A stretch of 37,666 nt of DNA from a virus, in the UHGV virus genome UHGV-0324630; one strand, written 5' to 3'. Positions 1-37,644 of the stretch are shown in pieces (positions within the stretch are counted from its first letter, which is position 1; each line of letters begins with the position of its first letter). The notes under the pieces were generated by a model. That model worked only from the letters and a program-made list of their open reading frames with translations. It did not search any database and was not told the origin of the DNA. The translations under genes were made by a program, and so were the position numbers.

Positions 1-44
1 TCACGACACTGCTTATTGCTTTGATTTTATTCTTATCTTTCCCA

Positions 45-99
45 TGGTACCCGGAGCGGGACTTGAACCCGCACAGCGCGAACGCCGAGGGATTTTAAA
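45..99 (-). tRNA. Partial tRNA-Leu (UAA-type) 3' fragment, about 55 nt; probable prophage att core, not an intact tRNA gene
   Basis: Minus-strand reading gives ...TTTAAAATCCCTCGGCGTTCGCGCTGTGCGGGTTCAAGTCCCGCTCCGGGTACCA: long class-II variable arm, T-arm GGTTCAAGTCC, acceptor 3' strand and CCA. Matches my memory of E. coli leuZ from the anticodon loop to the CCA end. The 5' half (acceptor 5' strand, D-arm) is absent; sequence diverges at position 100. Confidence 0.7.
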
Positions 100-205: not shown

Positions 206-1207
206 TTACCCTCTATTGTCAAAAGGGTTCAATTCAACAGCAGCCTCTAAATGACCTGGAGCAAAATGCGCATAACGCATAGTCATTTTTATATCGCTAT
301 GCCCCAGTATTTTTTGCAACACAAGAATATTTCCGCCCCGCATCATAAAATGACTGGCAAACGTGTGACGTAGCACATGAGTTAATTGCCCATCAGGAAG
401 CTCGATCTTCGCTCTCTTAATTGCAGCGTCAAAAGCCTCATAACATGGTGAAAATAGCGCTCCTCGTTTTTTAGGAAGCATAGCTTGCAATTGAGGTGAA
501 ATCGGTACAGTGCGGTTCTTCTTTCCTTTAGTTTTAACAAATGTGATTCGACCGGGCAGTACTTGAGATTGCTTTAATCCTTCTGCTTCACTCCACCGAG
601 CACCAGTCGCAAGCCCAATACGGACAACAACCCCCAAATCTTTATTCCGTGACTCATCACACGCAATCAGAAGGCGTTCAATCTCATCTACATACAGAAA
701 CGCCAGTTCCTTTTCTTCCTCACGAAACTTGCGAATACCAGTCAGGGGGTTTTCACCAGACCACTCCCCAAGGCGCTTCAGTTCGGCAAAAACAGCATGT
801 AGATATGACTGCTCGCGATTAACGGTTGCTTCACTAAGTTTTTTCTTCCCCTTGGGATTCCATTCTCCTGATAGCCTTCTTTCCCGATAAGTAGCAAACA
901 TATTTTTGTCAAACTGAGAAGCAAATGGATCTCCCAGCCTGGAACAAATCGCCTCAAGTTTGACTTTGCGCTCTGCACCAGAGGACAAGGTTTTACCGTA
1001 CATCTCAAACCAACGAGCAATCAACTCAGAAAGACGAGGACCAGAACCATCTTGAAACTCGTCTCCAACTCTACTATTCATTAAACGGCGCTCATAAGAG
1101 AGCGCCTCACTTTTTGTCGCAAACTGTTTACGAATGCGTTTTCCCGATGCCCCGTAGGGATAACATTCGCAAAGCCATTTACCTGATGGAATCTTACGAA
1201 CCGACAT
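206..1207 (-). CDS. int: Tyrosine-type site-specific integrase (P2/P4 phage integrase family)
   Basis: 333-aa ORF; C-terminal catalytic region ...LRHTFASHFMMRGGNILVLQKILGHSDIKMTMRYAHF with the R..H..R..Y pattern typical of phage tyrosine recombinases; lies next to the tRNA-derived att core. Confidence 0.92.
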   Translation of the reverse strand: MSVRKIPSGKWLCECYPYGASGKRIRKQFATKSEALSYERRLMNSRVGDEFQDGSGPRLSELIARWFEMYGKTLSSGAERKVKLEAICSRLGDPFASQFDKNMFATYRERRLSGEWNPKGKKKLSEATVNREQSYLHAVFAELKRLGEWSGENPLTGIRKFREEEKELAFLYVDEIERLLIACDESRNKDLGVVVRIGLATGARWSEAEGLKQSQVLPGRITFVKTKGKKNRTVPISPQLQAMLPKKRGALFSPCYEAFDAAIKRAKIELPDGQLTHVLRHTFASHFMMRGGNILVLQKILGHSDIKMTMRYAHFAPGHLEAAVELNPFDNRG

Positions 1208-1589: not shown

Positions 1590-2240
1590 TTACAAATTAA
1601 AAAACGCCCTAGAAATGACACCGCCTACCAAAACCCCTACGCAGATAAAGAATATTATTTCTTTTGGATAAAGTCGGATTAATTCTGAAGCACGAAGTCG
1701 GACTTCTGGTAAGGTCGAACTCTCTGTGTGGCTTGATGCCGATTGTTGCTCTAACCACGACAATGCAGACTGTAACTGAGAACGAGTAAGATCGTTTAAA
1801 CGTCCTGTACCGAAATTGATATGGCAATACCGCAGAAGTTTTTGTCGAAGTCCACAGTCTTCACTGTTACGTAGTAATAAACTTACAAGAGCCTTACAGG
1901 CATCATGATCTTTACATCGCTCAAGCATTGCATGCAGAAAACTCTCCGCTGTTTTATATTGATTTACTGTCATATCATCAATACCAGCTACACCAATCTC
2001 CGCATGTACTTTTTGCCAAATAATAAACGCTTCAGTATTGCTAGCTTCTGCAATAGCAGCAACCAAGCTATTTAGCTCCTTACGCTGAGCCTTAAGCAAA
2101 GGGCGATCGTCATCATCATTATTCGAAGGGATTGCGATATTGACGGTATGAGAACCATCATATCGCTCTATCTGAATATTCTTTTCGTGAAAATCACGCC
2201 CAGCAACGCGATTGTTTGAACCGTTTGAGTTGACGGCCAT
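1590..2240 (-). CDS. Hypothetical protein with C-terminal transmembrane anchor; N-terminus shares an NNR[IV]AGRD[YF] motif with the upstream HTH protein
   Basis: 216-aa ORF; GGAGGTGA RBS; C-terminal hydrophobic stretch IIFFICVGVLVGGVISRAFF; N-terminal NSNGSNNRVAGRDFHE resembles the C-terminal ISGGNNRIAGRDYNE of the ORF at 2256..2660. Confidence 0.6.
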   Translation of the reverse strand: MAVNSNGSNNRVAGRDFHEKNIQIERYDGSHTVNIAIPSNNDDDDRPLLKAQRKELNSLVAAIAEASNTEAFIIWQKVHAEIGVAGIDDMTVNQYKTAESFLHAMLERCKDHDACKALVSLLLRNSEDCGLRQKLLRYCHINFGTGRLNDLTRSQLQSALSWLEQQSASSHTESSTLPEVRLRASELIRLYPKEIIFFICVGVLVGGVISRAFFNL

Positions 2241-2255
2241 GTCACCTCCCTACTA

Positions 2256-2660
2256 TCACCTACCCTTAGTTTCGTTATAGTCACGACCAGCGATACGGTT
2301 ATTACCACCAGAAATATTTAACTCACGTCCTGATGGCTGAGTTTCCTTTTCACTGATCGCACCTTTTAAAGCCCCAATCACCGCGTTTTTCACATCTAAC
2401 GAAGCTGCTCGAAAGCGAGTAATCAATTCCTGCTCATCATCGTTATAAGTTTCAGGTGAGTGAATTCCCAACACAACATACTGAACATCAAGGCCAAAAC
2501 GAGACAGCGCTGCCAAATACGCAGCATCAGGAAAGCTATCTCCTTTCTCATATCTAAGCTGAGTTAGCTTTTTGACTCCACCAATGTCGCTCATGGCAAC
2601 TTGACTAAGTCCCAATCTTTCCCTTTCCTCACGCAACCGCTGACCAATATCATTTTTCAT
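2256..2660 (-). CDS. XRE-family helix-turn-helix transcriptional regulator; probable lysogeny repressor (P2 C / 186 CI functional analogue)
   Basis: 134-aa ORF; N-terminal IGQRLREERERLGLSQVAMSDIGGVKKLTQLRYEKG is a typical XRE HTH; transcribed divergently from the RHH/Cox-like genes and toward int, as in P2-like immunity regions. Confidence 0.8.
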   Translation of the reverse strand: MKNDIGQRLREERERLGLSQVAMSDIGGVKKLTQLRYEKGDSFPDAAYLAALSRFGLDVQYVVLGIHSPETYNDDEQELITRFRAASLDVKNAVIGALKGAISEKETQPSGRELNISGGNNRIAGRDYNETKGR

Positions 2661-2669
2661 ACAAAAACC

Positions 2670-2698
2670 TTGACAGGTATCTTTTTTGATACCAAAAT
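2670..2698 (+). promoter_or_regulatory. Candidate rightward early promoter (TTGACA, 17-bp spacer, CAAAAT) with embedded operator-like inverted repeat GGTATC-tttttt-GATACC (2676..2693)
   Basis: Perfect -35 hexamer TTGACA at 2670-2675; weak -10 at 2693-2698; perfect 6-bp inverted repeat occupies the spacer; sits in the 75-bp repressor/RHH intergenic region. Confidence 0.35.
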
Positions 2699-2735
2699 GA
2701 TTTCACGAGCTATTAGATGATCACAATATACCACT

Positions 2736-2942
2736 ATGAAACAAGTTCTTCACGATACCAGATCACGCATTCCGCGTAACACCGCCACAGGTCCAAGACT
2801 GGCACTTCGGCTGTCCCTCGAGGAGCGAGCCGTCATTGATGAAATGGCAGCTAAAGAACAACGCTCATCCTCTAACATGGCGCGCATGATCTTCCTTCGC
2901 GGCCTAGAGCTAACCCAGAAAGAACAAAACAAATCTTCCTGA
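2736..2942 (+). CDS. Ribbon-helix-helix (CopG/Arc-like) small DNA-binding protein, first gene of the rightward early operon
   Basis: 68-aa ORF; RLALRLSLEERAVIDEMAAKEQRSSSNMARMIFLRGLE fits a beta-strand/helix/helix RHH pattern. Confidence 0.65.
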   Translation: MKQVLHDTRSRIPRNTATGPRLALRLSLEERAVIDEMAAKEQRSSSNMARMIFLRGLELTQKEQNKSS

Positions 2943-2958
2943 TCAGGAGGCTAGTGGG

Positions 2959-3162
2959 ATGTCAGGTATAACCATCAATATCAATGTGAATGCCCCCTAT
3001 GTATCCCTGCAGAAATATGCAGAGATAACAGGTATCCCTCTTAATACATGCAAAAAGATGTTGGCTGACGGTCGAATTATTATCCGCCCCAAACGCGCCA
3101 AAATGGAAAAGCCTGAAGTAAACCTTGTGGCGATGTTAAAAGACGCTTTGGCTAACAGCTAA
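2959..3162 (+). CDS. Cox/excisionase-like small HTH DNA-binding protein
   Basis: 67-aa ORF with strong AGGAGG RBS; YVSLQKYAEITGIPLNTCKKMLADGRI resembles the P2 Cox / AlpA-Xis HTH region (from memory). Confidence 0.65.
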   Translation: MSGITININVNAPYVSLQKYAEITGIPLNTCKKMLADGRIIIRPKRAKMEKPEVNLVAMLKDALANS

Positions 3163-3183
3163 AACAATGAACAGAGCACCATC

Positions 3184-3534
3184 ATGAAAAAAAACGCTAA
3201 TAATCCATACTCCAAATTTCGTAATGGCGTAGAACGCCATGTACACCACGTCGCTACCAGTGCATCACGTAGTAACAGTCGCTATAACCTGAACGAGACG
3301 CACGCAACACCGGATGGCCACGCTGTAAAACAAATCGGCGAACATGCCTGGCTGATTGAGAAAGCTGGAATCGTGGTCCACAAATGCCCACACAATCCGT
3401 TTACCGGAAACCGCATTTTTGCATTGAACTGCGGCGACAATCACTTCGGGCAGGATTTCACATTATACGAAGCACTTCGCACGGTTGATCGTCTGCTTCG
3501 CGGGCAAAGTTTTATTAAACAGGCTGATTTATAA
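3184..3534 (+). CDS. Hypothetical early protein
   Basis: 116-aa ORF in the early operon; no motif recognised. Confidence 0.55.
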   Translation: MKKNANNPYSKFRNGVERHVHHVATSASRSNSRYNLNETHATPDGHAVKQIGEHAWLIEKAGIVVHKCPHNPFTGNRIFALNCGDNHFGQDFTLYEALRTVDRLLRGQSFIKQADL

Positions 3535-3544
3535 CAGGTGCTTT

Positions 3545-3824
3545 ATGACCAAAGAGCATGCACAAGGTGTATTTATCCGTTTTATTGATTTTCGCGGTGA
3601 ACTGTTATTACGCGCATCAGCCATTGACGGAGTTGTTCCATCCGAAAAAAAACGCAGCTACTTACGTTTATCTGAACGGTACGCGCCTGACTGTGGAGCT
3701 TCCGTACCAGACCGTACGAGAAATCATTAGCGAAGCTGAAAAGGCACGTCAGGTTAATGGCGATGAACCCTATATCGAAATTATTTGTATGGATTCAGAA
3801 GCTGAAATTCAGAAAGCAGATTAA
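3545..3824 (+). CDS. Hypothetical early protein split between two frames at an A8 homopolymer (3645..3652); frameshifted gene or homopolymer sequencing error
   Basis: Frame A (ATG 3545, RBS AGGTG) reads MTKEHAQGVFIRFIDFRGELLLRASAIDGVVPSEKK then ends at 3730; the +1 frame continues ...NAATYVYLNGTRLTVELPYQTVREIISEAEKARQVNGDEPYIEIICMDSEAEIQKAD to 3824. Removing one A from the A8 run fuses them into a single ~91-aa ORF that fills the gap between flanking genes. Confidence 0.45.
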
Positions 3825-5483: not shown

Positions 5484-5605
5484 GAAACCAGAACATGCAC
5501 ACACAAAAAAACCGCTTGCCATGCCGCAATCGGTCAGGTTACATTTCCGCTGCACCTCATAAAACGGGTGCCGGGATTCTCAACCCGATACAGAGCAAAG
5601 CGCAT

Positions 5606-5626
5606 AACCGCGCTAGCGGTTTTTTT
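5606..5626 (+). terminator. Intrinsic terminator-like hairpin (AACCGC-gcta-GCGGTT followed by a T-run)
   Basis: GC-rich 6-bp stem, 4-nt loop, then about 7 T; 123 nt downstream of the stop at 5483. Confidence 0.5.
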
Positions 5627-5805
5627 GTGCGTACTGTATTGCCACGTCTTTTTCGCGTCAGAATTATGGCGGGGCGTACGGGGCCGACTTCGGTCGGGCC
5701 GGATTCTTTGCTCTCCGGTGTTGAGAACCCTGTACGTCTCGCCACCCCGAGATTCTCAACTCTGGATGGTGAGTTATTTCTATCACCGAGCAAAGAGGCC
5801 ACACC

Positions 5806-6036
5806 ATGGCAGACCGCAAACAGCACCGCGCTATCGCGGAGCGTCGTCACATCCAGACTGAAATCAACCGCAGACTTTCCCGCGCATCACGCGTCGCGCA
5901 AATCATGCACATCAATATGCTGCATGAGCGCAGCCACGCACTATCAAACATTTATTCCGCCTCTGTTTTCAGCTATCTGGCGGATGATCTGCACGAGTTT
6001 CAACAGCTCATCCAGCAGCAAAACAAACTCCATTAA
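5806..6036 (+). CDS. Hypothetical small basic protein upstream of the replication genes
   Basis: 76-aa ORF with AAGAGG RBS 7 nt upstream. Confidence 0.55.
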   Translation: MADRKQHRAIAERRHIQTEINRRLSRASRVAQIMHINMLHERSHALSNIYSASVFSYLADDLHEFQQLIQQQNKLH

Positions 6037-6480: not shown

Positions 6481-9303
6481 ATGACGGCAGAGTACATCAG
6501 GGACTGGCAACAACCGCGCCACGCAGTGGGGCGTGAAGGAACGGGGATCCCCGCTCCTGAATCTGCGCTTTCCTCCTGGCTGGATGCCTACCGGGCAGAG
6601 AACGAGCGCCGCCAGGAAATGGCTGATGCGGCGTTCTCCGCCACACCGCTGGGCAACCTGATTAATAAAAGCCTGGACGCACAGGAAAAACAGGACAAAG
6701 CCATCACACTGGCAGGAGACGCCAGAAAACAGGCACGCGGCGCGGTGGATGAAGCCATGGCCTCGCTGCGCCTGCTGCCGTCCTATTTGCGCGATCCACT
6801 TATTCGTCACCTCTCCTTCCTGCGCAAAAAACAGGAAGCCGATCGCCGGAAAGGCAAAAAGAGCTGGCAGGCAGAACGCTATGCACGCGGAACCCTGCGC
6901 AAGATATTCGATCGCATAAACCGCACCGACAGCCGCTGGCTGACACCGGGTTATCGCTCCCTTGCCGGACGCGAACGCCTGGACGATTTGCTTTACCTGC
7001 CGCAGCTCAACAAGCACCAGATACAGACGCTGGCTACCATGACGGCGGCGATGTTCAGCAGCACCTTCGAAAAACTCTGCGATGGTTTTGGCGCGACCGA
7101 TGGCGAGCTGACCATGGATGTAACCCTGAAGGCGTATCAGATGCTGGCCCGCATGGCGTTACACCTGCACGCCATGCCTCCACATTATGACGCACTGACA
7201 ACAGACAAAGACCGGAGGAACGAACCGGACACGGAGCTGCTGCCAGGCGCAATCCTTCGCCTGACCTGTGCGGAATGGTGGAAACGCAAACTGTGGCTGT
7301 TACGTTGTGAGTGGCGGGAAGAACAACTTCGCGCCGCCTGTCTGGTTTCCAGAAAAACATCGCCCTATCTGAGCCAGGACGCGTTAAGCGAGTTTCGCGC
7401 ACAGCGCGAGAAAACACGCGATTTCCTGAAAAGTTTCATGCTGGAAAACGAAGACGGGTTCACGATTGATCTCGAGACAGTGTATTACGCGGGAGTAAGT
7501 AACCCGGTTCACCGTAAGGCAGAAATGATGGCCACCATGAAGGGGCTGGAACTTCTGGCCGAAGCCCGTGGCGACAAAGCGGTGTTTCTGACTGTCACCT
7601 GCCCGTCAAAATACCACGCCACAACAGAGAACGGTCATCCGAATCCCAAATGGAACGGGGCCACCATGCGCGACTCCAGCGATTACCTGGTTAACACGTT
7701 TTTTGCGGCGGTCCGCAAGAAACTGAACCGCGACGGCCTGCGCTGGTATGGCATCCGCACGGTGGAGCCTCACCATGACGGCACCGTGCACTGGCATATG
7801 ATGGTCTTTGCTCATCCGGAAGAAATCGACACCATTGTGTCCCACACCCGTGATATTGCCATTCAGGAAGATCGTCACGAGCTGGGTGATGATATTACCC
7901 CACGCTTTAAGGCGGAGTACGTCGACGGCTCAAAAGGCACACCGACCAGCTACATCGCCACCTACATCGGGAAAAACCTGGACAGCCGTGCCGTGGATGG
8001 CATCGACCCGAAAACGGGCAAGCCACGCGTTGACCACGAAACCGGAAAATCAATGGCCGAGAGCGTGGAACGCGCCATCGGCTGGGCGCGCCTTCACCGG
8101 GTCCGCCAGTTCCAGTTTTTTGGTATCCCCTCCCGTCAGGTGTGGCGTGAGCTGCGTCGCCTTGCCAGCCAGATGGCACGCAACCCGGAAGGCCCACAAC
8201 GGCTGAAGGATGACGCAATGGATGCGGTTCTTGCTGCCGCTGATGCCGGATGTTTTGCCACCTACATAGAGAAACAGGGCGGCGTACTTGTTCCACGCAA
8301 GGACTACCTGGTTCGCACCGCCTACGACCTCGCAGATGAACTGAATGATTACGGCGAACAGAGCGTACAGATTTACGGGATCTGGTCACCACTCATCGGG
8401 GAATCCTCTCGTGTGTGCACGCATCCGGATAACTGGAAGCTGGTAAGACGTAAACCGGAAACGGAAGACAGCGCCCGCGAAAATGGTTTTGACCTTCAGG
8501 GCGGCCCTGCCGCCCCTTGGACTCGTGGCAATAACTGTCCCCGTGTACAGGAAACGGACAACAACGGGACAGAACAGCCGGAAGAACGGCCAGCACCGTG
8601 GCCGCAGCTCCCTGACGGCGTTGAAGTGAACGAATGGATGCGCTCACTGAAACGGCACGAACGCCGGGCGCTGATGCGTTCGCTTCGTGACAAACAGGCA
8701 AAAAACAGCAGTGATGAAATGCAGAGCTGGACACAGAGCCGCAAACAGCAGCGGCCTTTGCCTGATAACCACGAATTACTCGCTAAAGAATGGCGGGAGT
8801 CTGCTGAATCTCTCGGCCTGCATATCGGTGAACAACAGATGCAGCACCTGTTACGGGGCGGCAGTCTGTACGTTGACGGCAGCATCATTGCACCGCAGGG
8901 ATTTGAAATTATACGCAAACCGGATACCCGCCCGGACAGCCGAATCACGCAGCTCTGGCAGCGCCTGAGCCGTAATCACGGCGTAAGCAGCACGGAGATC
9001 CGCCATAACCCGGTCGCCAGCTATCTGGCACAGCTGGGGGCATCAGCCCCTGAAGCCGCCGCACGCCTGGCATCCACACTTCAGCAGGACCAGAACACCA
9101 TGAAAACACCCGTTACCGTGCTTTCTGACATGCTGCGCGCCATCCGCGACGCAGAGCACGCACAGAGAATCAGTGAAACCACTGAACGCGCCCGCCGCAA
9201 AGCAGACCTGCTGCGGGGTGGCCTGACCAGTGGAAACAATAAACAGACAGAAACGGGACTCACGAATCCCGTAAATGAGCAAAAAACGCGCAGCGATATA
9301 TGA
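6481..9303 (+). CDS. A: Rolling-circle replication initiation endonuclease (P2 gpA family), with a long C-terminal extension
   Basis: 940-aa ORF; HUH-type motif GTVHWHMMVFAHP and paired-tyrosine motif TSYIATYIGKN typical of P2 A-type Rep proteins. Longer than P2 gpA (about 760 aa by my memory). Confidence 0.9.
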   Translation: MTAEYIRDWQQPRHAVGREGTGIPAPESALSSWLDAYRAENERRQEMADAAFSATPLGNLINKSLDAQEKQDKAITLAGDARKQARGAVDEAMASLRLLPSYLRDPLIRHLSFLRKKQEADRRKGKKSWQAERYARGTLRKIFDRINRTDSRWLTPGYRSLAGRERLDDLLYLPQLNKHQIQTLATMTAAMFSSTFEKLCDGFGATDGELTMDVTLKAYQMLARMALHLHAMPPHYDALTTDKDRRNEPDTELLPGAILRLTCAEWWKRKLWLLRCEWREEQLRAACLVSRKTSPYLSQDALSEFRAQREKTRDFLKSFMLENEDGFTIDLETVYYAGVSNPVHRKAEMMATMKGLELLAEARGDKAVFLTVTCPSKYHATTENGHPNPKWNGATMRDSSDYLVNTFFAAVRKKLNRDGLRWYGIRTVEPHHDGTVHWHMMVFAHPEEIDTIVSHTRDIAIQEDRHELGDDITPRFKAEYVDGSKGTPTSYIATYIGKNLDSRAVDGIDPKTGKPRVDHETGKSMAESVERAIGWARLHRVRQFQFFGIPSRQVWRELRRLASQMARNPEGPQRLKDDAMDAVLAAADAGCFATYIEKQGGVLVPRKDYLVRTAYDLADELNDYGEQSVQIYGIWSPLIGESSRVCTHPDNWKLVRRKPETEDSARENGFDLQGGPAAPWTRGNNCPRVQETDNNGTEQPEERPAPWPQLPDGVEVNEWMRSLKRHERRALMRSLRDKQAKNSSDEMQSWTQSRKQQRPLPDNHELLAKEWRESAESLGLHIGEQQMQHLLRGGSLYVDGSIIAPQGFEIIRKPDTRPDSRITQLWQRLSRNHGVSSTEIRHNPVASYLAQLGASAPEAAARLASTLQQDQNTMKTPVTVLSDMLRAIRDAEHAQRISETTERARRKADLLRGGLTSGNNKQTETGLTNPVNEQKTRSDI

Positions 9304-37558: not shown

Positions 37559-37644
37559 AGTTTAAACAGCACGTGCACTACCATTGTTTCTGCATATCGC
37601 CACACCATCGCCACTCTACCGCCATTGCACAAAATACAAATACG

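Follow-up and report, generated by a model that had tools for sequence, protein, structure and literature searches.

Between a leftward repressor gene and two small rightward genes, each encoding a DNA-binding protein, lies a short intergenic region with a perfect palindrome in the spacer of a promoter, and the question that this arrangement raises is which of the three proteins reads the palindrome. The locus is part of the virus genome UHGV-0324630, analysed here over its stretch of 37,666 nucleotides (nt), which we call the window. The first of the two small genes encodes a ribbon-helix-helix (RHH) protein and the second a homologue of Cox. In a preliminary description, made from the letters by eye, both the reader of the palindrome and the place of the repressor's own promoter were left undecided. 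The comparison of related loci presented below assigns the palindrome to the repressor as its predicted operator, and points to a separate conserved element as the probable site of action of Cox and/or the RHH protein.

Direct reading of the intergenic region returned exactly the 75 bp, the TTGACA hexamer and the palindrome at the positions that the preliminary description had given (Table 1). A consensus scan of both strands between positions 2200 and 3600 found exactly one sigma-70-like site, TTGACA-17-CAAAAT, with 10 matches out of 12. This site has the palindrome in its spacer, and we refer to it as the early promoter, Pe. It had been described as a consensus -35/-10 pair. The description is right for the -35, which is perfect, and for the 17-bp spacer with its palindrome; it is too generous for the -10, CAAAAT, which departs from the consensus at two positions. 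The palindrome of 18 bp occurs as a single copy in the window when no mismatch is allowed. Perfect inverted repeats with 6-bp arms and spacers of 0 to 10 are found in 16.6% of the 75-nt slots of the window and in 1.2% of its 20-nt slots. Taken alone, the palindrome is only moderately unlikely, and it is the comparative evidence that lifts it above chance as a predicted site.

To make this comparison, loci were gathered with the RHH protein as probe from IMG/VR, E. coli genomes, metagenome assemblies and GTDB genomes; 147 loci carrying the RHH-Cox pair provided 46 distinct upstream regions. In these regions the distance from a TTGAC[AT]-like -35 to the RHH ATG is constant at 68-70 nt, and the -35 is followed by a 17-bp spacer and an xAxxxT hexamer; with this spacing unchanged, the relatives have CAGAAT, CATAAT, AATAAT or TAAATT as their -10. 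The centre of the spacer is occupied by a palindrome throughout. Arms of 6 nt or more are present in only 3.8% of random 30-mers of the window. The palindromes form at least eight families beside the same RHH-Cox pair (Table 1), and each family is accompanied by its own recognition helix in the repressor, of which 10 relatives were aligned (examples are GVKKLTQLRYEKG, GVRKQAQLNYEKG, VSTRTWGKYERG, VSRETWGKYERG and CSRNAQAMYERD). Both early proteins, by contrast, stay unchanged from family to family, and so does the strand with which RHH reads DNA. Thus the E. coli locus VL46 has RHH and Cox genes 95% identical to those of the window, yet a different repressor and GGAAgttttgTTCC in the spacer. 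Loci of Gilliamella and Pectobacterium encode repressors 53-63% identical to that of the window, with the same helix, GVKKLTQLxYEKG. They retain TTGAC[AT] and GGTATA-N6-TATACC, and their rightward gene is Ner-like, with neither RHH nor Cox. Because the palindrome varies together with the recognition helix but independently of RHH and Cox, and persists where both of these are absent, it is identified by the comparison as the predicted operator, O1, of the leftward XRE-type repressor and not as a site for RHH or Cox. A dyad operator that overlaps the lytic promoter and covaries with the recognition helix is what is found here, in keeping with an XRE/Cro-CI-type repressor. The position of O1 in the middle of the spacer would imply simple occlusion of RNA polymerase from Pe. 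Extra half-sites at 2727, 2754 and 3031 were considered as operators and rejected, as they do not covary with the immunity type: GATACC (2754-2759) is GACACC in locus L003, whose operator is unchanged, and GGTATC at 3031 is identical in the type-B locus L002.

Other readings of the palindrome have to be weighed against this assignment. Autorepression is usual for RHH proteins and the palindrome sits in the promoter of the RHH gene, so that it might be an operator of RHH or Cox used for autoregulation of Pe on the lytic side, as with Arc at Pant; its half-site GGTAT is also similar to the GGTATATTGT box that the conserved element described below carries on its minus strand. We hold this to be very improbable, since the same RHH DNA-reading strand is found with unrelated palindromes (NPTPMRLS with at least three, GPRLALRLS/GQRLALRLS with three), near-identical Cox proteins also occur with unrelated palindromes, and GGTAT-N8-ATACC persists in loci having neither protein. 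The palindrome might instead function as RNA, namely as a hairpin in the 5' leader of the repressor mRNA that governs stability or translation. Given the repressor promoter predicted below, the hairpin would be located 26-43 nt into the transcript and 15 nt ahead of the start codon; the leader folds with -11.9 kcal/mol (z = -2.0), and a G-to-A variant of the left half-site (GATATC) would leave a G-U pair in the leader RNA. However, the half-site strictly follows the recognition helix across 53-63%-identical repressors from four genera while the spacer varies, half-sites recur three helical turns away, the palindrome is always centred in the Pe spacer, and the stems of the hairpin are short and A/T-rich, which makes a role as RNA in place of a protein site quite improbable. 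A chance inverted repeat in A/T-rich intergenic DNA would agree with the frequency of such repeats in the 75-nt slots of the window. The likelihood of this is negligible, as the palindrome is perfectly kept in an 87%-identical relative despite diverged flanks, and every other immunity type carries a different palindrome at the same position.

The repressor to which O1 is assigned aligns over the same residues, 5-55, with three Pfam families of helix-turn-helix (HTH) domains: HTH_31 (23.2 bits, cut-off 27), HTH_19 (20 bits) and HTH_3 (19.1 bits), all below the cut-off. The repressor also falls in phrog_8 (2.5e-14), and among solved structures the N-terminal domain of P22 C2 comes closest to it (E 0.011). 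No match to Peptidase_S24 was found in the repressor with Pfam, and its C-terminal half is short and helical with a conserved tail, unlike the LexA/lambda-CI-like self-cleaving class. Nor does it belong to the P2 C type, defined by about 99 amino acids (aa) and direct repeats, the operator here being an inverted repeat. The C-terminal tail, GGNNRIAGRDYNE (2262-2300, minus strand), is kept across heteroimmune types, from E. coli to Arsenophonus and Ectopseudomonas (L048, L057, L073, L074). The codons differ, so the motif is conserved at the level of the protein. The same motif, GSNNRVAGRDFHE (2180-2225, minus strand), opens the next gene of the operon, which encodes a 216-aa Flk_N-like protein with a C-terminal membrane anchor. 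This tail motif may be a common docking site for whatever inactivates repressors that lack a peptidase.

A possible weak auxiliary operator, O2, is located to the left of O1 (Table 1). Many relatives have a type-specific second site on the left side of O1, at a distance of 30-33 bp or three helical turns; in the AGGAA and TTGCA types this site is perfect. O2 probably permits cooperative binding as well as a degree of autoregulation. In the AGGAA-N6-TTCCT type the repressors (L135, L140, L148 and similar, from IMG/VR) have a 9-residue N-terminal extension (MSNKKEELLFL). The codons of this extension constitute a perfect second operator, AGGAATAATAATTCCT, 32 bp from O1, with coding sequence and operator superimposed.

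The first early gene encodes a 68-aa protein that matches phrog_3431, 'Arc-like repressor', at 1e-28, and its dN/dS against two relatives is 0.07-0.09. Pfam RHH_1 and RHH_5 are matched with an E of 0.075, below the cut-off. A profile built from six members of the family matches the TacA RHH antitoxin (6ajm, E 0.024) over the strand and helix A, and distant relatives either pass the gathering score of RHH_5 (27.9 and 36 against 26 bits) or match RHH_7, NikA or TacA1. The pattern of beta-strand, helix, G/x-x-S/T/N turn and helix is therefore one that RHH profiles recognise. Similarity to Arc is marginal (hhalign E 0.019). The AlphaFold2 (AF2) monomer model was uninformative for this obligately dimeric fold, giving one long helix with a pLDDT of 74, and single-sequence searches of the PDB returned nothing for the RHH protein and only chance lectin matches for Cox. 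Sequence comparison thus indicates that the 68-aa protein is the product of a real, selected RHH gene. The family is small, an exhaustive HMMER search finding only 51 representative clusters. Its gene is often missed, truncated or placed on the wrong strand in automatic annotation. For VL46, PGAP lists a partial opposite-strand pseudogene at this position; in L164 the gene callers begin at an internal Met, and L166 is also affected. The presence of only 9 RHH clusters in a large protein database is explained by this frequent misannotation.

The second early gene encodes a 67-aa protein of phrog_575, the family that HP1 Cox also matches (E 6.9e-16). BLASTP gives 45% identity to HP2 Cox (E 3e-18) and 26% to HP1 Cox (E 6e-6), and no match was found in Pfam. 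The AF2 model, of moderate confidence (pLDDT 66), is arranged as beta-alpha-alpha-beta-beta-alpha. Its top Foldseek matches in the PDB are Pukovnik Xis (4j2n, prob 1.00, TM 0.58/0.70), P2 Cox (4lhf, prob 0.99) and RdfS, with weak E-values. The protein combines homology to HP1 Cox with a Xis/Cox-like winged HTH fold, and is an HP1-type Cox homologue, a member of the winged-HTH family of recombination directionality factors (RDF) and repressors. The dN/dS of its gene is 0.06, and both small genes are under purifying selection. The names that the preliminary description had given to the three proteins can therefore be retained: the XRE repressor on Pfam matches that are consistent though below the cut-off, together with phrog_8 and P22 C2; the RHH protein on phrog_3431, the TacA profile match and the relatives that pass RHH_5; and the Cox/Xis-like protein on the phrog_575 shared with HP1 Cox, the identity to HP2 Cox and the fold matches.

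The linkage of RHH with Cox is strict throughout this subfamily and extends to relatives from Dickeya, Edwardsiella and metagenomes at 57-73% Cox identity. The RHH gene is first and the Cox gene second in all relatives examined, so that the early operon does not begin with a Cox/Apl gene. More distant phrog_575 Cox genes, those of HP1, HP2, K139, Yersinia phage 31.17 and Klebsiella phages, stand alone without RHH.

The repressor's own promoter, Pc, is most likely the extended -10 found just upstream of the RHH start, which a relaxed scan gave as the best candidate of the minus strand (Table 1). All but one of 14 aligned representatives share the TATATT of this candidate, the exception being L002 with TACATT; the TG is likewise shared by 13, Edwardsiella L166 having CG, whereas the base between the two varies. 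A single conserved box, ACAATATACC, is seen at Pc. The annotated PL of HP1 and HP2 has the same geometry: its -10 precedes the first early ATG by five or six nt, and its -35 falls within that gene. TTGTGA-18-AATCAT (2726-2697, minus strand) was also considered as a promoter and rejected, being weaker and not conserved beyond E. coli. Transcription is predicted to start near 2705 from Pe and near 2718 from Pc, and the two promoters would converge, their transcripts overlapping over a short stretch. Both O1 and O2 fall within the predicted Pc leader, which makes autoregulation possible.

The last stretch before the RHH ATG is a conserved non-coding element of 23 nt, which accompanies the RHH-Cox pair. 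Over the 14 representatives, which cover all immunity types and come from E. coli, Yersinia, Arsenophonus, Edwardsiella and metagenomes, identity is 87% in the element, compared with 73, 79 and 56% at the three codon positions of the RHH gene and 53% in the operator region. Twelve nt of the element, in the form ATATACCATTAT of Yersinia-type loci, recur between PR and PL of HP2, and with one mismatch in HP1. The repeats typical of RHH tetramers were not found, and a search by eye for Cox boxes or a shared repeat in the att arms was unconvincing, the attR core lying outside the window. The element is a probable target of Cox and/or RHH. Cox is the slightly better candidate as its reader, because HP2, with which the 12-nt stretch is shared, has Cox only, and because the HP1 Cox-box consensus offers a lead in the same direction. 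Our preferred guess is that the ACAATATACCAyTAT box is read by Cox, as in HP1 and HP2, and that RHH autoregulates the early operon.

We consider it likely that the locus is the switch of a P88-like prophage in which the repressor acts at O1, Pe and Pc face each other, and RHH and/or Cox act on the conserved element. A repressor dimer on O1 would exclude RNA polymerase from Pe, leaving the prophage silent. O2, situated 31 bp further left over the repressor start codon, would add cooperative binding and some autoregulation. The repressor operon would be read leftward from Pc. The two promoters would then point towards each other, with roughly 10-15 nt common to both transcripts, and repression of Pe would also relieve interference on Pc. 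Once the repressor is lost, Pe would express RHH and then the HP1-type Cox. Binding of one or both to the element over the Pc -10 would switch off the synthesis of repressor and integrase and turn down Pe, and Cox would additionally direct excision together with Int.

Several points weigh against this reading. Pe, Pc and all protein-DNA contacts in it are predictions, the Pe -10 matches the consensus at 4/6 and the Pc -35 at only 3/6. The O2 of the window is degenerate, with 13/18 matches to O1 that are partly forced by conserved N-terminal codons. The motif of the conserved element also served to anchor the alignment of the 14 representatives, the loci themselves having been found via protein homology, and its conservation could in part be owed to the start of translation at the RHH gene, where a Shine-Dalgarno sequence is lacking. 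One Dickeya locus has the RHH-Cox pair without the element. The HP1 Cox-box consensus, taken here as GGTMAWWWWA, is a lead only. Finally, the comparison cannot assign the action on Pc to RHH or to Cox, because both always co-occur. A division of labour between the two is accordingly conceivable, if doubtful: RHH would repress Pc (and Pe) in the manner of Cro, and the Cox homologue would serve as excisionase only, which would split the functions of P2 Cox, 186 Apl and HP1 Cox. The RHH gene occupies the position of HP1/HP2 cox, being the first gene with the PL/Pc -10 just ahead of its ATG, the two genes are strictly linked, and the core of the element, GTG-GAT-CAC / TGATCA, could suit an RHH dimer. 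RHH proteins typically autoregulate. On the other side, the stretch shared with HP2 points to Cox as the reader, and no repeat pattern of the RHH-tetramer type was found. We put forward only tentatively that RHH has taken over the Cro-like repression via the 23-nt element, Cox being a pure excision factor, or that RHH and Cox form a hetero-complex, with the pair serving at least eight swapped-in heteroimmune cassettes.

The architecture of the locus is that of the HP1, P2 and 186 switches, and its repressor/operator part is ordinary. With HP1 and HP2 it shares the divergent repressor gene and early operon beside int, facing promoters (predicted for the window) with the lysogenic -10 a few nt before the first early ATG and its -35 inside that gene, a repressor that reads palindromes at the early promoter (GGGTCA..TGACCC in theirs), a Cox in the same PHROG, and the ATATACCATTAT stretch between the promoters. 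It differs from them by the RHH gene ahead of cox, by a 134-aa XRE repressor instead of the 191-aa HP1 CI, by one early promoter instead of two, and by its operators. The P2 switch (C, Pe/Pc, Cox) is built from int, repressor and early operon in this order, with converging promoters and mutual repression (PMC3448106, PMC3936717). The same order is found here, and converging promoters with mutual repression are predicted; in contrast, P2 C binds direct repeats (PMC2995052) and the present operator is palindromic. In phage 186 (cI, pR/pL, apl, cII) the two promoters likewise face one another and inverted repeats at pR are bound by the repressor. Apl, the product of the first early gene, recognises direct repeats spaced by about 10-11 bp, and combines repression of the switch promoters with the role of excisionase (PMC7498355). 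The window resembles 186 in its predicted facing promoters and in the inverted-repeat operator at the early promoter; it differs in that no CII-like gene follows, RHH precedes the RDF, and no LexA-controlled Tum-like gene was seen. A short transcript overlap of the facing promoters is known from P2, 186 and HP1 (PMC3448106, PMC7498355).

P88, the type species of the same genus, shares the backbone of the window from DUF4761 onward, including a 95%-identical 'derepression' protein. The Cox proteins of P2 and P88 belong to Pfam Phage_COX, a sequence family different from the phrog_575 of the window, and neither phage has an RHH gene. Since P88 carries a P2-type C and Phage_COX on the shared backbone, the immunity cassette as a whole is exchangeable. 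The earlier remark that two small proteins are present where P2 has Cox alone is correct and extends to HP1, HP2, K139 and P88. P22 immI (mnt, Pant, arc, ant) is similar in that a small RHH gene is the first of its operon and divergent from a repressor gene, and by analogy the RHH protein would be expected to turn down its own promoter. Here, however, the divergent repressor is an HTH and not an RHH protein, and the downstream gene encodes an RDF and not an antirepressor. Two features were not described in the literature searched: a constant RHH gene as the first early gene before an HP1-type Cox, and the association of this constant pair with many heteroimmune cassettes.

Table 1. Features of the locus and its surroundings in the window, and the palindrome families found in the Pe spacer of related loci.
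Feature	Position	Strand	Remarks
tRNA gene, 3' part	about 44-99	-	beside int; attL
int	206-1207		adjoins attL
Immunity repressor, 134 aa	2256-2660	-	start codon CAT 2658-2660; probable N-terminal XRE-type HTH, conserved C-terminal half
O2, possible weak auxiliary operator, AATATCATTTTTCATACA	2645-2662		13/18 to O1; 31 bp left of O1; overlaps repressor start codon
Intergenic region	2661-2735		75 bp, between repressor and RHH genes
Pe -35, TTGACA (perfect)	2670-2675	+	from sequence and promoter scan
Palindrome GGTATC-TTTTTT-GATACC, predicted operator O1	2676-2693		arms 2676-2681 and 2688-2693; T6 2682-2687; fills Pe spacer
Pe -10, CAAAAT (4/6)	2693-2698	+	17 bp past the -35
Conserved non-coding element, TTAG-nn-GATCACAATATACCACT	2713-2735		last 23 nt before RHH ATG; overlaps candidate Pc -10 and first 10-30 nt of predicted Pe transcript
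Candidate Pc, extended -10 TGgTATATT	2733-2725	-	2-10 nt upstream of RHH start codon; best minus-strand candidate in relaxed scan
Pc -35-like, GTGAAG (3/6)	2753-2748	-	inside RHH gene
RHH protein, 68 aa, first early gene	2736-2942	+	phrog_3431, dN/dS, RHH profiles
Cox homologue, 67 aa, second early gene	2959-3162	+	phrog_575 at 1.2e-27
gpA-type replication gene	6481-9303		Pfam Phage_GPA 1.9e-131
Palindrome family GGTAT-N8-ATACC			variants GGTATC..GATACC, CTGGTAT..ATACCAG, GATATTCA..TGAATACC
Palindrome family GGTACTC-gatt-GAGTACC			N4
Palindrome family AGGAA-N6-TTCCT			
Palindrome family GGAA-N6-TTCC			
Palindrome family GAGATC-tatt-GATCTC			N4
Palindrome family CTTGACCA-N6-TGGTCAAG			
Palindrome family TATTTGCAGA-tt-TCTGCAAATA			N2
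Palindrome family ATGAGAA-N6-TTCTCAT			

The window is a P88-like prophage of E. coli (Peduoviridae, Xuanwuvirus), and its positions 2200-3600 are 95.6% identical in nucleotide sequence to Escherichia phage 520873 (NC_049344). In the RefSeq record of this phage gp04-gp06 are named 'transcriptional regulator', 'Arc-like repressor' and 'Cox-like excisionase and repressor'. The annotation is of genes only, and literature searches found no operator, promoter or experimental work on the 520873 switch. The integrase gene, the immunity repressor and the divergent early operon are adjacent in a P2-like genome, as in a Peduoviridae switch, and the repressor operon comprises, leftward, the repressor, the 216-aa membrane protein, DUF2511 and int. 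ARAGORN calls no tRNA at the left end, because only the duplicated 3' segment of the gene is present. In the 520873 record yecA is adjacent, which fits integration at the leuZ tRNA cluster. Repeats of ATCGCCAC are located near both prophage ends, at 194-205 and 37595-37625 (ttatcgccact; atatcgccacaccatcgccact), and may be arm-type integrase sites.

To the right of the two small genes, the homologue of 520873 gp08 and P88 gp05 (phrog_3800, 92 aa) is split into two overlapping open reading frames (ORFs) on the plus strand, 3545-3730 and 3558-3824 (region 3545-3824). The split is due to one extra base at an A8 run (about 3644-3651) relative to both 520873 and P88, and represents either a frameshifted pseudogene or a homopolymer sequencing error. 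Further downstream, on the same strand, an Rfam isrK (5552-5626, 63 bits) adjoins a C4 antisense RNA (5662-5749, 78.5 bits), which is followed by a 76-aa ORF (5806-6036) scoring 31.9 bits with Pfam 'Derepression', above the cut-off of 27. Together the three make up an anti-immunity module under RNA control, like those of P4, P1 and N15, a short way upstream of gpA. The case for the 'derepression' protein as an Epsilon-like cognate antirepressor is weakened by the 95%-identical protein of P88, whose P2-type C is unrelated, and its target may not be this prophage's own repressor. Neither the switch nor the DNA upstream of the derepression gene yielded a LexA box; the sole CTGT-N8-ACAG of the window is inside gpA, at chance level.

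The kilobase of the switch region was found in 524 of 5426 complete E. coli genomes, mostly at an identity of at least 99% and in many O157:H7 genomes. A prophage present in about a tenth of complete E. coli genomes, O157:H7 included, thus carries a switch that is itself unstudied. The current understanding of phage switches is unchallenged by the present analysis. With at least eight pairs of recognition helix and palindrome on one constant chassis, these loci provide a testable operator code, which can serve to type the immunity of P2-family prophages and to supply orthogonal repressor/operator parts. The linked RHH-Cox pair is in turn a natural experiment on why phages of the P2 family normally fuse the Cro-like and excisionase functions.

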